From Candidatus Babeliales bacterium (GTDB lineage: Bacteria; Babelota; Babeliae; Babelales; JACPOV01): DNA of 64,000 nucleotides. A program made the position numbers and the translations under genes. Where the stretch lies: positions 731,938 to 795,937 of the forward strand of contig DATALT010000002.1 in assembly GCA_036260945.1 (NCBI GenBank). The letters are read 5' to 3'. Each line of letters starts with the position of its first letter. Position 1 is the stretch's first letter. Below the pieces are notes generated by a model that was not told the origin of the DNA, searched no databases, and saw only the letters and a list, made by a program, of their open reading frames with translations. Of the stretch, positions 1,189 through 55,836 are shown in pieces.

Positions 1189-2373
1189 TTATGCACTTGT
1201 TGTTGCATCGTGAGAATAATAAACGATCGATGCAGAATCAAAAAGCTGATCTTTATATTTCTTAAATAGATCGACCGATTTCTCTTGGCGCAATTCTGCA
1301 ACAATATGCTTATAGCGTTTTTTGAGAGAAACTAAGCGCTGCGGTTTTTTTGCCGATACCTTAAAGAGTTCAAAGCCGCCATTCGTTTCTAGTGGTTCAG
1401 AAATCTTATTTACATCCAGCGATAATAGAAAGCGCATATGCTCCGCCATTTCGCTCTCTTTGAGCCAAAACTCATCTTCCCAAGATGTAATAAATGAAGT
1501 ATCGCCCGCGGCAATTTTATTTACCAACTCATCTTTAGAACTAACTTGAGAAAAAGAAACAAATGCTCTTGAAATTTTTACTCGAGGTTCATTATAAATT
1601 GGATGCTCTTTGTAATAGGCTTCTATCTCATTTTCAGGTACCACAACGCCTTGCATTTTCATTTCGCTCATATAATTGACCGCGTACATTTTTTTCAGCT
1701 CTTTAATACCTTCTTGCAGCGTATAGCCAGATTGCGCAAGAATTTTTTCTAAATCGCTCATGCTCCAATTATTTTGTCTGCAGAGGCCATCAATATAATT
1801 GTTGACGATTGAGTTATCGTTCGGGTCCATTTTTTGGCGCTCAATAAGCTGCATCCAATTTTGATAAACCAACTCATTAAACGCAAACATCTCTAGTTTT
1901 TCAGCATCAGTGCGAGCAGCCATTGGCGCTAAACCTGGCCGGTATTTGTCGGTCTCGCAAAAAATTTGGCATCTCTCTGGGCCGTTAACTGCGCAGGCAA
2001 CCCCATCCAGATAAACTCTGCCCGCTTTCATGGGTTTTGGGGGCGCAACGACGAGCATTTTCTTATCCGCTAGCGGATCGTCGGTCTTTTTTATCTCTTG
2101 AGAATGGGTCAGTTGTTTGCTGGCTTTAGAGCCTTTTTGTGCCTTAGATGAATCATCACTTTTTTTTGCAGCAAGCGTTGCCGCTGCAGGTTTTTTTTGC
2201 GCTGATTTGTTGGTTACGCTCGTTGCTTTTTTAGGCGCAGTTGCCGGTAAAGCGTTCTTAGTAACCGTTGCCTGCTTTTTAGGGGAGGTAGAAGGCTTGC
2301 AAAACCCTCCAGAGCTAAAACCGGCTAGCAAAACGATTAAGAGGAGAAAATTACGCATATTCATTCGAGTCAT
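1189..2373 (-). CDS. SurA/PpiD-like periplasmic chaperone (PPIase family) with Lys/Ala-rich N-terminal linker
   Basis: Signal peptide followed by a K/A/S-rich low-complexity linker and a SurA-N-like chaperone region; the start may be an internal Met near 2358. Confidence 0.5.
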   Translation of the reverse strand: MTRMNMRNFLLLIVLLAGFSSGGFCKPSTSPKKQATVTKNALPATAPKKATSVTNKSAQKKPAAATLAAKKSDDSSKAQKGSKASKQLTHSQEIKKTDDPLADKKMLVVAPPKPMKAGRVYLDGVACAVNGPERCQIFCETDKYRPGLAPMAARTDAEKLEMFAFNELVYQNWMQLIERQKMDPNDNSIVNNYIDGLCRQNNWSMSDLEKILAQSGYTLQEGIKELKKMYAVNYMSEMKMQGVVVPENEIEAYYKEHPIYNEPRVKISRAFVSFSQVSSKDELVNKIAAGDTSFITSWEDEFWLKESEMAEHMRFLLSLDVNKISEPLETNGGFELFKVSAKKPQRLVSLKKRYKHIVAELRQEKSVDLFKKYKDQLFDSASIVYYSHDATTSA

Positions 2374-23692: not shown

Positions 23693-25546
23693 ATGAGCAT
23701 CGATCATTCTTTATCGTACGATTTTGACGTCATTGTTGTAGGAGGCGGCCACGCAGGAATTGAGGCTGCTTACGCATCTGCTCGCTTGGGATCACGCACA
23801 CTGATGATAACCCTCAATCTCGATCGCATAGGATTTATGCCCTGCAATCCGGCGATTGGCGGCGTTGGAAAAGGGCACATTGTTTTTGAGATTAGCGCGC
23901 TTGGCGGTTTAATGCCCAAATTGTGCACGCAAACCTATCTACAAGCCCGCATGCTTAATACCAGTAAAGGCCCGGCCGTTCAAGGGCTTCGCCTTCAAAT
24001 CGATAAACACGCCTATAATAAATTAAGTAAACAAACACTTGAACATACAGAAAACCTGACCCTTATGATGGGAATGGTTGAAAATCTGATCCTTAATGAA
24101 AAGAATGAAGTATGCGGCATAAAAACTCGCGAAGGAGCAGAGTATACCGCTCGTTCGGTTATTCTCACAACCGGCACCTTCTTAAATGGCCTTATCCATA
24201 TTGGCCAAACAAATTATTCAGCCGGGCGCCAAGGTGACGAATCGGTGCCTCATCTTTCTCATTTTTTAGCAAATTTGGGAATCAAAATTGGCCGCTTAAA
24301 AACCGGAACTCCTCCCCGCTTATTGCGTTCAAGCCTCGATTTTTCAAAAATGACCATGCAAGAGCCTGATAATTTGGACTATCTATTTGAGTTCAAACCC
24401 CAAACCGTCACCAGCTCTCATGCATGCTACATTACGCACACAAACGAAAAAACTCACGAGATTATAAGAAAAAATTTACATCTTTCGCCGATGTATAGCG
24501 GTAACATCAAAGGTATTGGCCCGCGCTATTGCCCATCAATCGAAGATAAAATTGCTCGCTTTGGTACCAAAACTTCGCATCATGTTTTTGTAGAACCAGA
24601 AAGTGCTTCAAGTGAAGAAGTGTACCCTAACGGTATTTCCACCTCTTTGCCGCTCGAAGTGCAAAAACAATACGTGCGTACGATTCCCGGATTTGAAAAT
24701 GCGGTCATTGTGCGCCCTGGTTATGCAGTTGAATACGATTTTGTTTTGCCAGATCAACTCAGTAGCTCACTTGAAGTTAAGCATGTTTCCGGTTTGTTTT
24801 TAGCTGGCCAAATTAATGGCACAACTGGATACGAAGAAGCTGCCGGGCAAGGAATTATTGCGGGAATTAACGCACACTTGAAAGCTACAGGGCAAAAACC
24901 TTTCATCCTATCACGCCAAGAAGGATATATTGGCGTAATGATAGACGATTTAGTAACACTCGGCGTTGATGAACCCTATCGCATGTTTACGTCGCGCGCG
25001 GAACGCCGCCTTTCTTTGCGGCAAGATAATGTTTTTTATCGGCTTGCGCAAACGAGCTACAATTTAGGGCTCATTAATAAATCGTTTTATGATGAAATCA
25101 AACAAGAGCAAGCACTCGTTGCGCAAGTAGTCCGCGATATTCGTTCCGGAAAAAACAATGATGATTTATTGAAATTATTGGGCCGAGATGAAACAAATAT
25201 CGAACGAATTCATGAGATAACGAATAATGCTTTAAACAATCGTGCTGCATTAGCAGTATGGGCAGAAGTGCGCTACGAACCGTATTTAAAGCGCGATCTT
25301 AAGGAAATGGAAAAAGCGCTACATATGCAAGATCTTGAAATTCCTGAATCGCTTGATGTTACACTTATTGCCGGTCTATCAAAAGAATTACAAGAGAAAT
25401 TAAGAAAACATAAACCAAAAAATATCGCAGCCGCTTCGCTTATTCCAGGAATGACTCCTGCAGCAATCGCGGTACTTATTTTTAAAATCAGAGAGCATAG
25501 TAAAATAAAAGCAAAAAAAGATTCATGTTTAGAGGAAGTACAATGA
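23693..25546 (+). CDS. mnmG: tRNA uridine 5-carboxymethylaminomethyl modification enzyme MnmG (GidA)
   Basis: FAD-binding [15 protein letters not shown]; full-length MnmG architecture; an alternative start is at 23678. Confidence 0.9.
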
Positions 25547-26265
25547 AAAAATTAGCCCAACTTTTATTTGTTTTATCGTCAGTTTCAGCTATTTCGTTCG
25601 GCGGCGATTCGATAATAGTTGAAGAATCAACGGCGGCATCGCCCACAAAAAAGATATCAACAAAACCGATAATCAAAGAAGAAGCAAAAAAAGTAGCCAG
25701 TCCTCAGAAAAAAACAACATCGCCCGCATCAGAAACTATTGAAAAAAAGAGTTGCACTAAAGATGCGGCAAAAAAACCGGCCGGCAATACCCCAAACAAA
25801 GACAACAAAGCCCCAGAAAAGAAAAAGAGCGGCTACGTAAACCCCTACGCAATAAAAAAAGAAACAGGCCAACCTGAGCCGATTGTAGTTGAGAAACCGA
25901 TTGCTGCCCCGGTAATCATGTCTGAGCAAAAAAAAGAACCGGTGATTGCGCAAAAAGAAAAAAAAGGACGCACGGTTCAGATAAAAAATTCGATCACTAA
26001 AGACATGATCACGTATCATCATTGGACAGGAAAACACACGCCAGATTTTGTTTTAAAAATTAACGGCAACGAAGTTAAGCAAGGAGTAACCGCTTCGGTT
26101 CCTGTCGAAAACAATGCGGTTAAATTTGAATACATTTTTAATTTTGCAAACGGATACTACAAAGATACAAAAAAAGCTGAGTTTACTCTTCCTGCAGGTG
26201 ATGCTTTTGAACTCGATTTCTCATGGAAATCGCAACCAAATATAAAAATTATTCCAGCCAAATAA
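25543..26265 (+). CDS. hypothetical secreted protein with Lys/Pro-rich linker and a C-terminal globular domain
   Basis: GAGGAAG Shine-Dalgarno plus ATG at 25543; signal peptide; K-rich low complexity (aa 40-150). Confidence 0.5.
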
Positions 26266-36691: not shown

Positions 36692-37477
36692 ATGTACCCA
36701 ACACTCATTCATATTTACGGTCCAATTTCTATTCACTCGTACGGCGCGATGATTGCGCTTGGGTTAATTATTTTTAGCCTTTTAGCACTCAATGATCCCC
36801 GCCGCGAAAAAATTTTAACGACCGATCTTTTTATAATGCTGCTGATCCGGGGAATTATTGCTGCAATTGTGGGCGGCAAAATTCTTTTTGCGCTCACTAA
36901 TTGGCACCTTTTTGAACATCCTTTTGAGTTTATCGAGTTTTGGCACGGAGGTTTTTCAATTTTGGGAAGCATCCTCAGCGTGATTGCGGTGATTCCTTGG
37001 TATTTAAAAAAATACTCAATTGATAAGTGGCAGTTACTTGATCTAGCAGCTCTTTATGCACCGCTCTTGCAAAGTATTGCGCGCATAGGATGCTTTTTTG
37101 CTGGATGTTGCTTTGGCCTGCCAACCAGATTGTTTGTCGGCATTTCTATTGCCGATGAGTATGGAAACGTATGCATGCGCCATCCATCGCAATTATATAG
37201 TTCTGCGCTTCTGTTTTTTATTTTTCTTTTTCTCTATGCCATTTTGCAAAAACGGGTACGTACACCCGGCGTGCTCGCACTTTGGTACGTAGCGCTTGTA
37301 ACAGCAGAGCGGTTTTTTGTAGATTTCTTTAGAGAAGATCACATTATTGTACCAATGCCCTTTCTTCCTTTTTTTTCAATTAATCAATGGATTGCTCTGA
37401 TTATGTGTCTAACATCGGTTGGATTACTTCTTGCGGGCATGAAGCGAAAGCACTATGAGCCTTTTCAATTTCATTAA
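36692..37477 (+). CDS. lgt: prolipoprotein diacylglyceryl transferase
   Basis: Lgt signature (IHSYG, multi-TM, about 260 aa). Confidence 0.85.
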   Translation: MYPTLIHIYGPISIHSYGAMIALGLIIFSLLALNDPRREKILTTDLFIMLLIRGIIAAIVGGKILFALTNWHLFEHPFEFIEFWHGGFSILGSILSVIAVIPWYLKKYSIDKWQLLDLAALYAPLLQSIARIGCFFAGCCFGLPTRLFVGISIADEYGNVCMRHPSQLYSSALLFFIFLFLYAILQKRVRTPGVLALWYVALVTAERFFVDFFREDHIIVPMPFLPFFSINQWIALIMCLTSVGLLLAGMKRKHYEPFQFH

Positions 37478-39251
37478 AGGTCATGTTTCGATAATTGATG
37501 TGGTCAGTGAATATGCAAGTTTGAAAAAAGCAGGACTTTATTTAAAAGGAAACTGCCCTTTCCATCATGAAAAAACTGCATCATTTACCGTAAGTCCGCA
37601 TAAAGAAATTTATTATTGCTTTGGATGTCACTCTGGCGGCGATGTGATTTCGTTCATTGCAAAAGCCGAGCAATGCACGCAATTGGAAGCGGCGCAGTAT
37701 TTAGCGGAGCGCTATAATATTCAAATACCGCAAGAATATTTGAGCTATAATAAAGAAGCTGCGCATCAAAAAACTGACGAAAAAAAACGATATTGGCTTC
37801 TATGCAATTTAATTGCACAATGGTGCCACGAACAGCTAAAAAAAAATAAAGATGCACTTGCGTACATCAAACAACGTTCAATAAATGATGAAACAATTGA
37901 GCGATTTAAAATTGGTTATTTTCCTCAATCACCACAAGCTATTAAAGATTTAATCGACGTGATCCGCCAGCATCATTTTATGGCGCAAGATCTTCTGACA
38001 ACAAACGTCGTCTCCGAAAGTAAAGGAATGTATTATTCTCCGCTTGCAGATCGGATAATTTTCCCTATTGCGGACCCGATGGGGCGCCGCTGCGGTTTTG
38101 GCGGAAGAATTTTTAGACAGAATGACGAACGACCAAAATATTATAATTGTAAGGAAAGCCCCTATTTTTCAAAAGGCTCCCTTCTTTTTGGATTCGATTT
38201 AGCAAAAAAAGAGATTCAAGCTCACAATGGTGTTTATTTAGTTGAAGGGTACATGGACTGCCTCATGATGGCGCAGTACGGTTTTCTTAATACGGTAGCT
38301 ACGCTTGGAACCGCCTGCACCCCAGAACAACTAAAGCTGCTTTCTCGATACGCTCAACAAGTTTTCGTTCTTTACGATGGTGATGATGCGGGTAAAAAAG
38401 CAATGCTGCGCCTAACCCAGCTTTGTTGGCAGGTAAATTTGGAGCTGCGCGTCATTGAATTGCCTAAAAAAGAAGATCCTGATTCGTTCCTGCGCAAGGG
38501 CGGGAACTTAGCCCCGTTGGCTGCTGCAGCGCACGATATTTTCATTTTCTTTGTAGATACGGTCGGCTCCGGGTTTATTAACAAAACCCTCCATGAAAAA
38601 ATGGACACGATTCGCGAGCTTATTCAGATTATAGGAACAGTGGAAGATCCCCTCAAAAAGGACATTCTGCTCCAGAGGGTTGCAAAGACCTGCGACATAC
38701 CATTTCAAGCATTGGCAAGCGAAGCCCAGCGGCAGGGCAATTTTTCTAGCACCAGCGCCCCAAACGGTCTGCCAGAATCTGATACCCCTCGGCATAGCCC
38801 ATCCTCGCTGGCAATCGCACTTAAAGAAGTACCTCTCTTGGAAAAAAAATTATTTTCTGTTATAATAAATAACATGAATTTGTTAAAAAACGAAGATGAA
38901 GAGTACCTGACCGAATATGCAACGCCACCCGTGCGCGATCTTCTGATAAAACTGCAATTATTAAGAAAAGAAAGCGAACCGGTGGATTTTTCACTTTTTT
39001 TTGAACATTTATCTGATCAGGAGAAAGTATTAATGAGTCAGCTGCTTCTTGAGTGTCATGAATACGACGGACCAGAGAATTTTGATTATTTGCTCACACA
39101 ATTTCAAAAGAAAAACTGGAAATCGTTCGTAACAGATACTAAAATCAAATTAAATCGAGCAAAGCAAGAAAACGACGAACCGGGCGTTCAAAAAATTTTA
39201 ACTCATTTTCAAGAGCTGAAACAAAAACTTGTCAGCAGGGGCCTTATATGA
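37455..39251 (+). CDS. dnaG: DNA primase
   Basis: Zinc finger [11 protein letters not shown]...[11 protein letters not shown]; TOPRIM EGYMDCL...DGDDAG. Confidence 0.9.
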
Positions 39252-41497
39252 TTAAAAAAGCAGTCAAAAAGACAACATCTTCTAAATCTAAGAAGATCGT
39301 ACAAGTTAAAAAAAGCTCGGTTGCCGCAAAAGTATTGCGCGCGGCTACAAGTACTATTGCACGAGCGCTCAGCAAACTTGCCCCGGCAAAAAAATCGGCT
39401 CCCGCTCCTAAAAAGCCGCAAGCTAAAAAGAAACAAATAGCAAAACCTGCCGTTGCCCCTAAAATTAAAAAAGCTGCTGCACCCGTTACTCAAAAAAAAC
39501 CTGCGCCAGCTCCAGTTGCAAAACCACAAGAAAAAAAACCTACTGCTCCAGCAGTCAAACCGGTCCTTGCAGCAACTCCTCCCGCGCCAACTAAACCGGT
39601 AGCAAAACAACCTGCGAAGCCGACAAAAAAAGCTCCTGCAAAGCCAAGTTCAGCTCCGGAAATTGATCTGAAAGATGAAATATTTTCTACCATCCTTGAA
39701 AAAGGGAAGAAAATTGGTGCTCTTACCTATGAAGAACTGATTGAGTTCAGACAGCGCTACCAACTTTCTGATAAAGAGCTTTCAGAACTTATGCGCGTTC
39801 TTCCTCAAGAGGGCGTAGAACTTATCATGCAAGAAGAAGTTTCGGACGCTTATATTGAAGATCTTCCAAAAGATGAACTTGTTCCTGCTGCGCTTCCAGG
39901 TACCTTTGATGCACAAATAGAAATTGACACCGAAGAAGAAGAATCTGGCCAAGAAGATGAAGACGAAGCAGAAGAAGAGGAAGATAAATTAGTTGTTAAA
40001 GAAACAGCCTCTTCAGCACAATTGACCGATGGCGTAAAATGTTATTTACGTGATATTGGTAAAATTCCGTTGCTCAACAAAAAAACAGAGAAAGTAATTG
40101 CGGATCAGATTGCGCTTGGCAAAAGTGAAGCGATCGCCTCTATTTCAAAATTTCCGTTTATTCATAAAGAGTTGGTAAATATCGCGGATAAATTACAACG
40201 CAATACGCTTCCACTCAAAGATATTATTCAGTTCTCTGAGTTTGACCAAGAAAATCTTCCCAAAATTGAAGAAGAAAAAATGGCACTTCTTTCTATTTTG
40301 CTTGAAGTAAAAAACTTAATAGGCAACGAAGAGCAAATCTATCGCAGTTATCGAGCTAAACTTGCCGACCCTGCACAAAAAAAAGAGATGCTTGATAAGG
40401 TAAAAGAAAACAAAGAAGAGATCAGCAAAACCATTCAAACGATCAAGATCTCTAATAAGCTCATTCGCAAGCTCGCAAAACGGATTGAAAAAGCGATGCT
40501 CAAAATCGAAGAGAAAAAAGCTGAAATAGCGCTCGCTGAAAACGATTTAAAATCGCTTGCTCATCCTGAACATCCTTCTGCTGAACAAATTGCGCAAAGA
40601 GAAGAAATTGAGCGCATCATCCGCGGCGGATTTAAAACGATTAAAAAAGTTGAAGGCGAAATGGGTATCAGCCAGGAGCAAATTGAGAAAAATTATAATC
40701 AGCTCCAAGCCGGCCTTGATAAAGATAAACGAGCAAAAGATGATCTTGCAAAAGCAAACTTGCGCCTCGTTGTAAACATCGCAAAGAAATATATCAATAA
40801 AGGCCTCCCATTCTTAGATTTAATCCAAGAGGGAAACATCGGTTTAATGCGCGCGGTTGAAAAATTCGACTTTGAGCGCGGATTTAAATTTTCTACCTAT
40901 GCAACTTGGTGGATTCGCCAAGCAATTACTCGTGCAATAGCAGATCAGTCGCGTACAATTCGCGTACCGGTACATATGGTTGAAACGCTTAATAAAATTA
41001 ATAAAATCAAGCGCGTCTTTATCCAAGAACACGGCCGCGAACCATCTCACGCCGAACTTGCTAAAGAACTCAATATTGATGAAAAGAAAATTAAAAACAT
41101 TATCAAAATCTCTAAGGAACCTATCTCTCTTGAAACACCCGTTGGTGATAGTGAAGATGCGTTCATTAAAGACTTTATTGAAAACGAAAACGATTTCTCT
41201 CCTGCAGATACGGTCGCAAGTAATGATTTAAAAGAGCGTGTGCGCGAAGTTCTCAAAACACTTACACCACGTGAAGAAAAAGTCATTAAAATGCGTTTTG
41301 GTATCGATGTAGCTTCTGAGCATACGCTCGAAGAAGTAGGTAAGGATTTTTCCGTTACTCGTGAACGTATTCGCCAAATCGAGGTCAAGGCATTGCGCAA
41401 ACTCCGCCATCCATCTCGTAGCAAAAAGCTCCAAACATTTTTCGATAAAGAGTTTGAGAATTTGGATAAAGATTTTGATAATATGCCCAATGACTAG
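39248..41497 (+). CDS. rpoD: RNA polymerase sigma-70 factor RpoD with about 135-aa Lys/Ala/Pro-rich (histone H1-like) N-terminal extension
   Basis: Regions 1.2-4.2 present ([49 protein letters not shown], region 4 helix-turn-helix); dnaG-rpoD synteny. Confidence 0.9.
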
Positions 41498-41553
41498 AAA
41501 ACAACATATTTAGTAATGAAAACAATTGTATTAATTTAAGGACCTTTTGATTT

Positions 41554-42864
41554 ATGGAACCTCCTTCGCTCTTTGATCATCTAATGTATACCGAAATAAT
41601 CGGTTTTATTATTGCGCTCATTTTTTGTGCAATATTTTCTTTCCTTGAAACGAGTATTACGGCACTGCGTCTTTTTAAGCTTAAAGAACTTGCAAGCAGT
41701 ACTTCATCTCGCTACAGAACACTCATGGCAACACTCGAAGAGAATCCACATCAGGTTCTTATTACCATATTAATTGCAAATAATATCGCAAACGTCACTG
41801 CCGCCGCATTAATTACAAACGTTATGGAGCGGATTTTTGCGCACCTTAATCTTTCTGGTAGCCTTGGCTTTTCGCTTGGAATTGGTATTGCTACGATCGC
41901 CATTTTAATTTTTGGGGAAGTTATTCCTAAAAACATGGCCAAAGTTCATGGTGCAGCATTGCTCCCATCCACCATGTGGTTCACTAACTTTATTTTCTAT
42001 CTTTTCTATCCGCTGGTAACTTTTCTCCTTAAATTTTCATCGAGCATCATTGCTTTCTTTGGTGGATCTTCGGAGCCGAGTGAATCGGTTACTTCTGAAC
42101 ATGAAGTACGCTTTTTGATCGATTATATTAATGAAAAAGGATTGATGGAGCGTGAAAAAACTGAAATGCTTCAAAGTATTTTTAAGCTTGGCAGTAAATC
42201 GGTACGCGAAATTATGGTTCCTGCAAGCGATATCGTAATGATCAACGCAGATACTCCACTCAAAAAAGCGGTAGAAACGTTTTCAAAATATCAGTTCTCT
42301 CGCTTTCCTATTTATGATGGGACAGCAGATAATATTATTGGCATGATTCACCAAAAAGATGTTTTTGTGGTAATGTCCAAAGGTGAAGAAAAATCACTAA
42401 CCGAGCTTGTTCGCCCAATTCTTTTTGTTCCTGATACGATGCGCATTAATCAATTGCTGCGCGAATTTAGAGAGCAACGCAAACATATTGCAATCGTTCT
42501 TAATGAGCACGGCATTATTACCGGCTTGGTGACGCTTGAAGACGTGCTTGAAGAAATCGTCGGCGATATTAGCGATGAATACGAACCAATTACAGAAAAA
42601 ATTATTCCGCACGAAAAAGGCGGCTGGATTGTTGATGGCGCAGTCGATCTTGAATCGCTCGCAAAAGTTTTGCATATCACTTTTGAATATGAAGAAGATG
42701 TCGTTACACTCGGCGGGTTTTTAACTTACCAATTACAGCATTTACCTAAAAAAGGTGAATCGATTGTTTATAAATCGTATACTTTCCAAGTTCAGAAAGC
42801 GAGCCCTCGACGAGTTTCTCAAGTTCTGGTAACGCACGAAAAAACGAACGCCCCAAAAAAATAA
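41554..42864 (+). CDS. CNNM/TlyC-family transporter (DUF21-CBS-CorC_HlyC)
   Basis: Four N-terminal TM segments, CBS pair, C-terminal CorC/HlyC domain. Confidence 0.8.
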   Translation: MEPPSLFDHLMYTEIIGFIIALIFCAIFSFLETSITALRLFKLKELASSTSSRYRTLMATLEENPHQVLITILIANNIANVTAAALITNVMERIFAHLNLSGSLGFSLGIGIATIAILIFGEVIPKNMAKVHGAALLPSTMWFTNFIFYLFYPLVTFLLKFSSSIIAFFGGSSEPSESVTSEHEVRFLIDYINEKGLMEREKTEMLQSIFKLGSKSVREIMVPASDIVMINADTPLKKAVETFSKYQFSRFPIYDGTADNIIGMIHQKDVFVVMSKGEEKSLTELVRPILFVPDTMRINQLLREFREQRKHIAIVLNEHGIITGLVTLEDVLEEIVGDISDEYEPITEKIIPHEKGGWIVDGAVDLESLAKVLHITFEYEEDVVTLGGFLTYQLQHLPKKGESIVYKSYTFQVQKASPRRVSQVLVTHEKTNAPKK

Positions 42865-54831: not shown

Positions 54832-55836
54832 TTAATATGCTCTACCGCTTGTTGTTGCTACGGGTTGCTTGATCGTCATTGCTGGATTATCTCTTTGTGC
54901 CGGCTGCGATACATTCATCATGCCACTCTGATCTATTTGGCTTGATATATCAGCAGGCATATTTTTTTGTAAACCTGATAAGTGCAATTGTACTTTTGAA
55001 ATTCGGTCATCAAGCTTATCTATTTGGCCTTTGAGTTTTTGCGCTTGCGCACTGTTTTTATCTGCAATTGCATCATATTGAGTATGTAAAGCATCCATAT
55101 GCTGACCATAATCATCACGAAGTTTTTTCAATTGTGTTTGAACGTCATCCCATTTTTTATCTTGTGCAAGCTGATCCAACGCCATTGGATCCATTCCTGG
55201 CTCTATTTCTTCATCAACTAAATCGTATCCCCAATATGGATAGTAATCGTTGTACACAACACTAACCGCTTGTTGAGGAATTGCGTAATCATACCAAAGT
55301 GCTAATGCGCCTAAACCGAGAAGTCCTGCGCCCCATCCCCATGCCCATGGAGAAAGGCCCCAACCCCAGCCCCAGCCGCCCCACCAGCCGTTGCCCCAAC
55401 CGTGGTTACGCCAGCCATGATTTCCATGATGCGCAAATGAACGATTTCCTCGTGCGCCACGACCAGCACCCCTGCCTCTACCCATTCCACGCGCGCCACG
55501 CCCTGCACCTCTACCTGCAGCTCCTCTGCCCATTCCGCGAGCCCCCCCGCGACCCATACCTCGAGCGCCAGTTCGCGATATTCCGCGTCCGCCACCGGTT
55601 CGCGCCATCCCGCGGCCTCCACCAGTGCGAGCCATACCTCGTCCGCCACCGCGCCCCATACCGCCACGGCTCATTGATCTACCACCGCCACCGCGACTCA
55701 TGCCTCTACCACCGCCGCCACGTCCACCGCCTCCGCGGCCACCACCACCGTGGCCACCACCACCGCGAGCATCAAGCATATCAACAGCCATTACGCTGAT
55801 GATTGCTACGAGCACTATCGCCAAAAATTTCTTCAT
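54832..55836 (-). CDS. secreted low-complexity protein with RGG/GGGR repeats and a Trp-Gly-rich segment
   Basis: Signal peptide; about 25 degenerate GGGR(G/M) repeats; HGWRNHGWGNGWWGGWGWGWG block; C-terminal coiled-coil. Confidence 0.6.
   Translation of the reverse strand: MKKFLAIVLVAIISVMAVDMLDARGGGGHGGGGRGGGGRGGGGRGMSRGGGGRSMSRGGMGRGGGRGMARTGGGRGMARTGGGRGISRTGARGMGRGGARGMGRGAAGRGAGRGARGMGRGRGAGRGARGNRSFAHHGNHGWRNHGWGNGWWGGWGWGWGLSPWAWGWGAGLLGLGALALWYDYAIPQQAVSVVYNDYYPYWGYDLVDEEIEPGMDPMALDQLAQDKKWDDVQTQLKKLRDDYGQHMDALHTQYDAIADKNSAQAQKLKGQIDKLDDRISKVQLHLSGLQKNMPADISSQIDQSGMMNVSQPAQRDNPAMTIKQPVATTSGRAY
55300..55770. repeat. GC-rich degenerate tandem repeat (CCACCGCC-like units) encoding the RGG repeats
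   Basis: Local GC island in an AT-rich genome; all alternative-frame ORFs across it are repeat artifacts. Confidence 0.7.

Follow-up and report, generated by a model that had tools for sequence, protein, structure and literature searches.

The primary sigma factor (RpoD) of Candidatus Babeliales bacterium, which belongs to the phylum Dependentiae (TM6), is a protein of 749 amino acids (aa) in which a disordered, polycationic N-terminal extension precedes an otherwise complete group 1 sigma factor, with region 1.1, an acidic linker, and regions 1.2, 2, 3, and 4. Its gene, rpoD, lies in a 64-kb stretch of contig DATALT010000002.1 (GC content 39.6%), which we refer to as the window and to which all coordinates apply. 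It is nearly certain that the extension, or tail, is a genuine, translated, and disordered part of RpoD. The extension recurs with a positive charge in all 120 of the orthologs analyzed, whereas its length and sequence change rapidly. The role of this segment can be addressed with less confidence. Non-specific binding of DNA by the tail is a reasonable guess drawn from comparison with similar tails, and near-neutral expansion is a serious alternative.

In this study, we followed up an earlier note, made from the letters of this DNA alone, which had reported a basic N-terminal extension rich in lysine, alanine, and proline (K/A/P-rich) on a 749-aa RpoD. The open reading frame (ORF), the domain content, and the composition of aa 1-136 bear this description out.

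A Complete Primary Sigma Factor with a Basic N-Terminal Extension

The gene encodes the primary sigma factor (group 1 sigma-70). Sigma-70 regions 1.1, 1.2, 2, 3, and 4 occur in its product in this order, each above the Pfam gathering score (Table 1). The protein also passes the NCBIfam equivalog model TIGR02393, RpoD_Cterm (377.7 bits against a cut-off of 354), and falls slightly under the cut-off of the full-length RpoD model NF004208 (548.9 against 555). A public protein annotated as RpoD of Candidatus Babeliales (P0001), which is present on six contigs, the longest of 1.06 Mb, matches it at 100%.

The tail (aa 1-136) consists largely of three amino acids: 34 lysines (25%), 31 alanines (23%), and 22 prolines (16%). 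It has two arginines, one glutamate, and no aspartate. Its isoelectric point (pI) is 11.7 and its net charge +35, as compared with a pI of 5.3 and a net charge of -19 for the other 613 residues. At the frequency of acidic residues in the remaining protein, the probability of finding at most one of them in 136 positions is 2.7e-12. The GC content of the tail is 46%, versus 39% in the other part of rpoD, and the difference comes from the first and second positions of alanine and proline codons; at third codon positions, the GC content (GC3) is low (0.26, versus 0.33 in the rest of the gene). Raised GC with low GC3, brought about by alanine and proline codons, indicates that the tail is native and reflects selection on amino acids rather than AT drift or foreign DNA. 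The alanine and proline content is indeed opposed to the AT-rich mutational background.

The tail had been described as a sequence of the KKxAxPAxKP type, and this wording holds for its composition but not for a regular repeat. Tandem Repeats Finder (TRF) reported no array in the tail DNA at a score of at least 30. A motif count revealed a single PAKK, no AKKA, AAKK, or S/TPKK, and no periodic motif in the tail. Since there is no tandem repeat at the DNA level, the tail is not a recent product of slippage, and an origin from a tandem repeat was ruled out on the empty TRF result.

Structure prediction places this segment next to an intact region 1.1. In an AlphaFold2 model based on a 60-sequence alignment, aa 1-139 are disordered, with a predicted local distance difference test score (pLDDT) of 36-59, and are followed by a confident three-helix fold at aa 141-193 (helices 141-156, 161-171, and 175-187; pLDDT 78-88). 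The acidic linker further downstream contains a stretch with a net charge of -14 (aa 226-250). The Pfam match to region 1.1, its predicted fold, and the linker are thus all intact downstream, and, of the two possibilities raised earlier, that the basic residues replace region 1.1 or precede it, the second stood and the first did not. The sole helix predicted within the tail (aa 26-41) is free of proline and amphipathic, with a hydrophobic moment of 0.65. Apart from the first eight residues, no stretch of the tail is better conserved than the one in which this helix lies, and the helix is kept in the two closest species representatives (loci L001 and L002).

Table 1. Coordinates of rpoD, its parts, and overlapping or adjacent features in the window
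Feature	Position	Strand	Details
rpoD, primary sigma factor	39248..41497	+	Uninterrupted ORF, 749 aa plus stop; Pfam and NCBIfam
Shine-Dalgarno-like AGGGG	39237..39241	+	6 nt ahead of the rpoD ATG
Polycationic disordered N-terminal extension	39248..39655	+	aa 1-136; composition, AlphaFold2 pLDDT, evolution rate
Sole predicted helix within the tail	39323..39370	+	aa 26-41; DSSP on the AlphaFold2 model, pLDDT 50-59
Sigma region 1.1, folded domain	39668..39850	+	aa 141-201; PF03979 at aa 144-201, 23.0 bits against a cut-off of 22.5
Acidic disordered linker	39860..40027	+	aa 205-260; pLDDT <50
Sigma region 1.2	40028..40123	+	aa 261-292; Pfam PF00140
Sigma region 2	40745..40957	+	aa 500-570; Pfam PF04542
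Sigma region 3	40982..41212	+	aa 579-655; Pfam PF04539
Sigma region 4	41249..41410	+	aa 668-721; Pfam PF04545
dnaG, primase	37455..39251	+	ORF, 598 aa; TGA stop shares ATGA with the rpoD ATG
Antisense ORF, not a gene	39209..39610	-	133 aa; translation rich in F, R, S, and C (21% Phe, 11% Cys), mirrors K/A/P codons
Second antisense ORF inside rpoD	39490..39693	-	Artefact

Start Codon and Reading Frame

N-termini of low complexity are often mis-called, and we therefore considered whether the true start of rpoD lies downstream of the tail or whether a frameshift has joined a small, originally distinct basic gene to rpoD. No support was found for either, and such an artefact is exceedingly improbable. 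The overlap of the rpoD ATG with the dnaG stop and the Shine-Dalgarno-like element ahead of it, i.e., the junction (A/T)AGGGG...ATGA, were found again in most of about 45 Dependentiae species-representative loci, which come from independent assemblies. In addition, the ORF is unbroken in all orthologs despite many insertions and deletions. Besides the ATG at 39248, the reading frame upstream of region 1.2 has just three ATG, GTG, or TTG codons, namely a TTG at codon 30 and ATGs at codons 182 and 194, both within region 1.1, and no start codon occurs between codons 30 and 182. Because codon 182 is inside region 1.1, translation that began past the basic region would destroy this domain. Accordingly, the alternative starts were rejected, the TTG also having no Shine-Dalgarno-like element. 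The codon scan and the continuous ORF thus effectively exclude, on sequence grounds, a downstream start or a frameshift, either of which would have undone the earlier description, and we regard the start at 39248 as secure at this level of evidence.

The antisense ORFs over this region had been set aside as artefacts of composition, and our data support this assignment. The translation of the longer one mirrors the composition of the tail, its frame and length are not retained in L001 and L002, and off-frame open stretches of comparable length exist elsewhere in rpoD.

Evolution of the Tail in Babeliales

The 120 nearest homologs of the window RpoD were collected (at least 59% identity to the query); all named ones belong to Dependentiae/Babeliales. 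A net-positive extension is located ahead of region 1.1 in each of them, which answers the question of conservation that had been raised for related lineages. The extensions are 14-183 aa long (median 56 aa) and have net charges from +1 to +46; on average, K and R account for 31% of residues and D and E for 8%. A positive extension ahead of region 1.1 is thus a clade-wide trait with a very labile length. In a neighbor-joining tree of the sigma cores, tail length is structured by clade, and tails longer than 90 aa are present on at least five separate branches.

The sequence of the tail is equally labile. It aligns well with L001 and L002 only at aa 1-8 and approximately aa 23-47, and the rest differs by many in-frame insertions and deletions of 2-21 codons. 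The ratio of nonsynonymous to synonymous differences (pN/pS) in the L001/L002 pair is 0.28 for the tail and 0.04 for the core. A further ortholog, P0002, is 83% identical to the window RpoD. Taken together, these patterns mark the tail as translated, disordered, and under selection for composition and charge, not for sequence.

A large sister clade (homologs P0033-P0118; loci L012, L022, L027, and L040) has a strongly conserved amphipathic motif, MKKLFKKITEIVTGKK, at the extreme N-terminus. Its consensus, M[KR]K[LF][LF]K[KR]I[TS]E[MIL]V[KT]GKK, heads basic tails of 60-125 aa. The motif does not occur in the clade of the window RpoD, where the internal helix (aa 26-41) is found instead.

Several metagenome-assembled genomes in this set (those at L002, L012, L039, and L049) were deposited as uncultured Pseudomonadota, Campylobacterota, or Epsilonproteobacteria. 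Their RpoD proteins are 60-73% identical to that of the window, and the taxon labels of these records are probably wrong.

Basic Extensions in Diverse RpoD Clusters

We further searched the core of the protein, without the tail, against 1.84 billion cluster representatives and took the best 150 matches, of which 108 had at least 60 residues before region 1.2. A protein was considered strongly basic if a 60-aa window with a net charge of at least +15 occurred ahead of region 1.2. Such a segment was detected in 21 of the 108 diverse RpoD representatives. Pfam region 1.1 was found downstream of the basic block in nine of ten sampled proteins, beginning at residues 80-435. In the basic-tailed clusters, the core is only 40-45% identical to that of the window RpoD, which argues that this architecture arose or persisted in many lineages. 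Roughly one-fifth of the sampled diverse RpoD clusters, and all Babeliales-type orthologs retrieved, have a basic disordered extension ahead of region 1.1, which is thus a recurrent and largely unstudied addition to primary sigma factors.

Three RpoD representatives (P0145, P0155, and P0167; 1067-1158 aa) have 550-630 residues ahead of the part that matches the core. They are far longer than the sigma chains in solved structures, none of which exceeds 652 aa.

Possible Functions of the Tail

Region 1.1 is located in the downstream DNA channel and is displaced in open-complex formation; it acts as a DNA mimic and an autoinhibitor (PMC11888270). K/A/P-rich tails confer sequence-independent DNA binding in the proteins tested: in HbhA, the tail is both required and sufficient for binding, in HupB it is required (PMC10665949), and in TopA it stabilizes the TopA-DNA complex (PMC5714199). 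With these precedents, the reading we tentatively favor, while holding it to be somewhat short of probable, is that the RpoD tail serves as a non-specific, electrostatic nucleic-acid-binding arm. Region 1.1 of this protein would likewise occupy the downstream channel of the holoenzyme and be expelled as the open complex forms. Because region 1.1 sits in this channel and then leaves it, the tail should emerge near duplex DNA, and a flexible polycation on the N-terminus of region 1.1 would be positioned to touch the duplex around the channel. Such a contact could lengthen the residence of the holoenzyme on DNA and/or stabilize promoter complexes, much as K/A/P-rich tails add DNA affinity to the actinobacterial proteins TopA, HupB, and HbhA. 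The arm could bind DNA or RNA, and docking might be a separate task of the conserved helix (aa 26-41). An arm for DNA (or RNA) appears to be the best reading because K/A/P-rich tails bind DNA wherever they have been tested and because of the likely position of this one.

Several points weigh against a binding arm. The argument is by analogy with other tails. The lysine density (25%) is lower than in the tested DNA-binding tails, and AKKA, PAKKA, and SPKK are absent. Tails of 14-25 aa suffice in many relatives, and sigma factors of this clade can therefore function without a long one. The very fast turnover of the sequence would also be expected of a weakly constrained region. Finally, M. tuberculosis sigma-A tolerates the loss of its first 132 residues (PMC10011835).

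Alternatively, the tail may be a tolerated expansion of low-complexity sequence with little or no specific function. An ancestral short, lysine-rich N-terminus would have repeatedly expanded and shrunk in host-dependent lineages of small population size, with selection merely barring residues harmful to the function of region 1.1 or to solubility. The range of lengths, the separate long-tailed branches, the lack of sequence conservation beyond aa 1-8 and approximately 23-47, and a pN/pS approximately sevenfold higher in the tail than in the core all agree with this explanation, as do the dispensable N-terminus of sigma-A in complementation and the short tails of many relatives. Moreover, similar linkers rich in K, A, P, and T are found in unrelated secreted proteins of the window. 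However, drift of this kind does not readily explain the positive net sign in 120 of 120 orthologs, a pN/pS below 1 even in the closest pair, or an enrichment in alanine and proline that opposes AT-rich mutation, and the same architecture in many unrelated RpoD clusters suggests a recurrent advantage. On balance, we consider expansion without specific function a rather unlikely but real contender.

The polycation might instead act within the protein. The +35 block adjoins a block of about -24 to -27, and, given the known properties of region 1.1 as a DNA mimic and autoinhibitor (PMC11888270), the tail could contact region 1.1 and the linker, both acidic, by folding back, and would then modulate how free sigma inhibits itself or how region 1.1 is ejected from the RNA polymerase channel, rather than bind DNA. 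If so, the two charges might be expected to vary together, but in the 120 orthologs they are uncorrelated (Spearman rho -0.14, p 0.13): the charge of region 1.1 plus the linker stays constant at -27 +/- 3, while that of the tail spans its full range. A model of charge compensation was rejected because this covariation is not significant. AlphaFold2 also gave no confident contact, the pLDDT of the tail being below 60. We therefore view an intramolecular regulator as improbable.

The short amphipathic helix (aa 26-41, or MKKLFKKITEIVTGKK in the sister clade) could also be the functional unit, docking on an RNA polymerase subunit, a lineage-specific regulator, or a membrane, with the K/A/P stretch as a spacer. 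No other part of the tail is predicted to have secondary structure, the helix ranks with the best conserved segments, and an N-terminal amphipathic motif is kept across a large clade with 60-125-aa tails. We also compared 14-residue segments of long tails with shuffled sequences, and the mean maximum hydrophobic moment was higher in the tails (0.52 versus 0.38). Only 30% of the long-tailed proteins exceeded their shuffles at p<0.05, however, and short-tailed relatives have no such motif. Furthermore, the helix has no known partner and is predicted with low confidence (pLDDT 50-59). These points make a helix-centered function distinctly improbable.

A broader version of the nucleic-acid-binding arm may be imagined for the long-tailed Dependentiae, in which sigma would behave as a nucleoid-associated protein. 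The arm would hold the holoenzyme or free sigma along the chromosome or on nascent RNA, coupling transcription capacity to the state of the nucleoid in a lineage where regulators are few, and a partner specific to this lineage would be recruited through the conserved helix. We regard this proposal as a long shot. If true, it would represent a mode of sigma-70 action with no experimental precedent.

Gene Neighborhood and Other Features of the Window

The rpoD gene is part of a close-packed, co-directional string, lgt-dnaG-rpoD-corC/CNNM (36692..42864, + strand), with overlaps of 23 nt between lgt and dnaG and 4 nt between dnaG and rpoD. The order is the same in the contig that carries P0002, where the counterpart of dnaG has the Pfam DnaG domains and an equal 4-nt overlap with rpoD. 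The conserved dnaG-rpoD order is therefore present in both contigs. In E. coli, the operon order is rpsU-dnaG-rpoD; in contrast, rpsU is not upstream of dnaG in the window.

A promoter-like site, TTGGAA-17-TG-TATAAT with an extended -10 element, is located inside dnaG (38838..38866, + strand), 380 nt 5' of the rpoD ATG. It recalls the internal rpoD promoters of other bacteria, but promoter-like counts nearby are at chance level. A scan for promoters and terminators around dnaG-rpoD gave counts no higher than chance, and an Rfam scan of the window gave no matches.

Two proteins with signal peptides contain low-complexity linkers rich in K, A, P, and T (1189..2373, - strand; 25525..26265, + strand). 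A SurA/PpiD-like rotamase is one of them; Pfam has no match to the other. Basic low-complexity sequence is thus not confined to RpoD in this proteome, but these two further cases are exported proteins. A third predicted secreted protein (54832..55836, - strand; 334 aa), which also has no Pfam match, consists of a signal peptide, approximately 110 aa of GRG/RGG/GRGM repeats, a Trp/Gly-rich stretch (WGNGWWGGWGWGWG), and a coiled-coil-like C-terminus.

Comparison with Known Basic Tails and Extended Sigma Factors

The earlier note had likened the tail to the C-terminal domain of histone H1, chlamydial Hc1/Hc2, and AlgP. The tail resembles these proteins in being rich in Lys, Ala, and Pro, highly basic, and disordered, and the likeness does not extend beyond this class of composition. 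No Pfam family, including Hc1 and HC2, matched aa 1-136 at E<=10; NCBIfam gave no match to the tail; and the tail alone had no significant relative in a HMMER search against 5.8 billion proteins. Kinship with H1, Hc1, or AlgP was rejected on these grounds. The proteins in question are free-standing chromatin proteins, whereas the tail is an appendage of sigma. It has neither the winged-helix globular domain of H1 (the Pfam Linker_histone model matched neither the tail nor whole RpoD) nor the S/TPKK and AKKA motifs, and the TRF search and motif count gave no KPAA-type tandem repeat such as that of AlgP. Among ORFs of the window that are 80 aa or longer, no separate Hc1-like or HU gene is visible.

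A closer parallel is provided by the actinobacterial TopA, HupB/HupS, and HbhA. Their tails are also terminal, disordered, and of the Lys/Ala/Pro class, and belong to proteins of DNA transactions. These tails are C-terminal, have AKKA/PAKKA repeats, and contain lysine at higher density, in contrast to the N-terminal RpoD tail with its one PAKK and no AKKA or AAKK.

A basic tail had also been considered not to be a described property of sigma-70. This does not hold, given the strongly basic RpoD clusters reported above and published examples of lysine repeats and of an extended sigma-A. M. tuberculosis sigma-A has a disordered N-terminal extension of 205-225 aa (PMC10011835, PMC11888270), which is located near the downstream DNA channel and whose deletion lowers steady-state transcription approximately 100-fold (PMC11888270). 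Sigma-A lacking the first 42, 92, or 132 residues complements and transcribes, and only the acidic segment 132-179 is essential (PMC10011835). The extension is predicted to be wholly disordered and has no homology to region 1.1 (PMC11888270); extensions of this type are invisible in structures. Sigma-A and the window RpoD thus share a long disordered extension on a primary sigma factor, which E. coli sigma-70 does not have. The two differ in that the essential part of sigma-A is acidic, while the window RpoD has a basic tail and then a canonical folded region 1.1, which the extension does not replace, and a separate acidic linker. No sequence similarity was found between the two extensions.

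The RpoD clusters P0210, P0269, P0166, P0250, and P0149 are similar to the window RpoD in having a basic segment rich in K, A, P, and T before region 1.1. P0149 also has a sub-threshold match to chlamydial Pfam HC2, which the window RpoD does not. A literature search for a sigma tail in Dependentiae found no description. As a single finding, the tail is incremental, with no mechanism beyond those proposed for Lys-rich tails. In its clade, tails of 14 to 183 aa are attached to sigma cores that are nearly identical, a natural series of lengths that may be used to test the effects of tails on promoter search, open-complex stability, and sigma recycling.

Among characterized primary sigma factors, lysine repeats have been listed in Streptomyces HrdB and Bordetella pertussis RpoD and proposed to accompany GC-rich genomes (Strzalka et al., PMC5714199). 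As in the window RpoD, Lys/Ala-rich low-complexity sequence occurs there in a housekeeping sigma factor with a proposed contact to DNA. The repeats of HrdB are placed after its N-terminal domain, not at the extreme N-terminus. Whereas the HrdB and B. pertussis segments were described as repeats and as typical of GC-rich genomes, the window tail has no repeat unit and belongs to a genome of approximately 40% GC, and its occurrence in an AT-rich genome counters the published link. The tail is thus a new, previously undescribed Dependentiae and AT-rich-genome example of a known, poorly understood kind of sigma extension.

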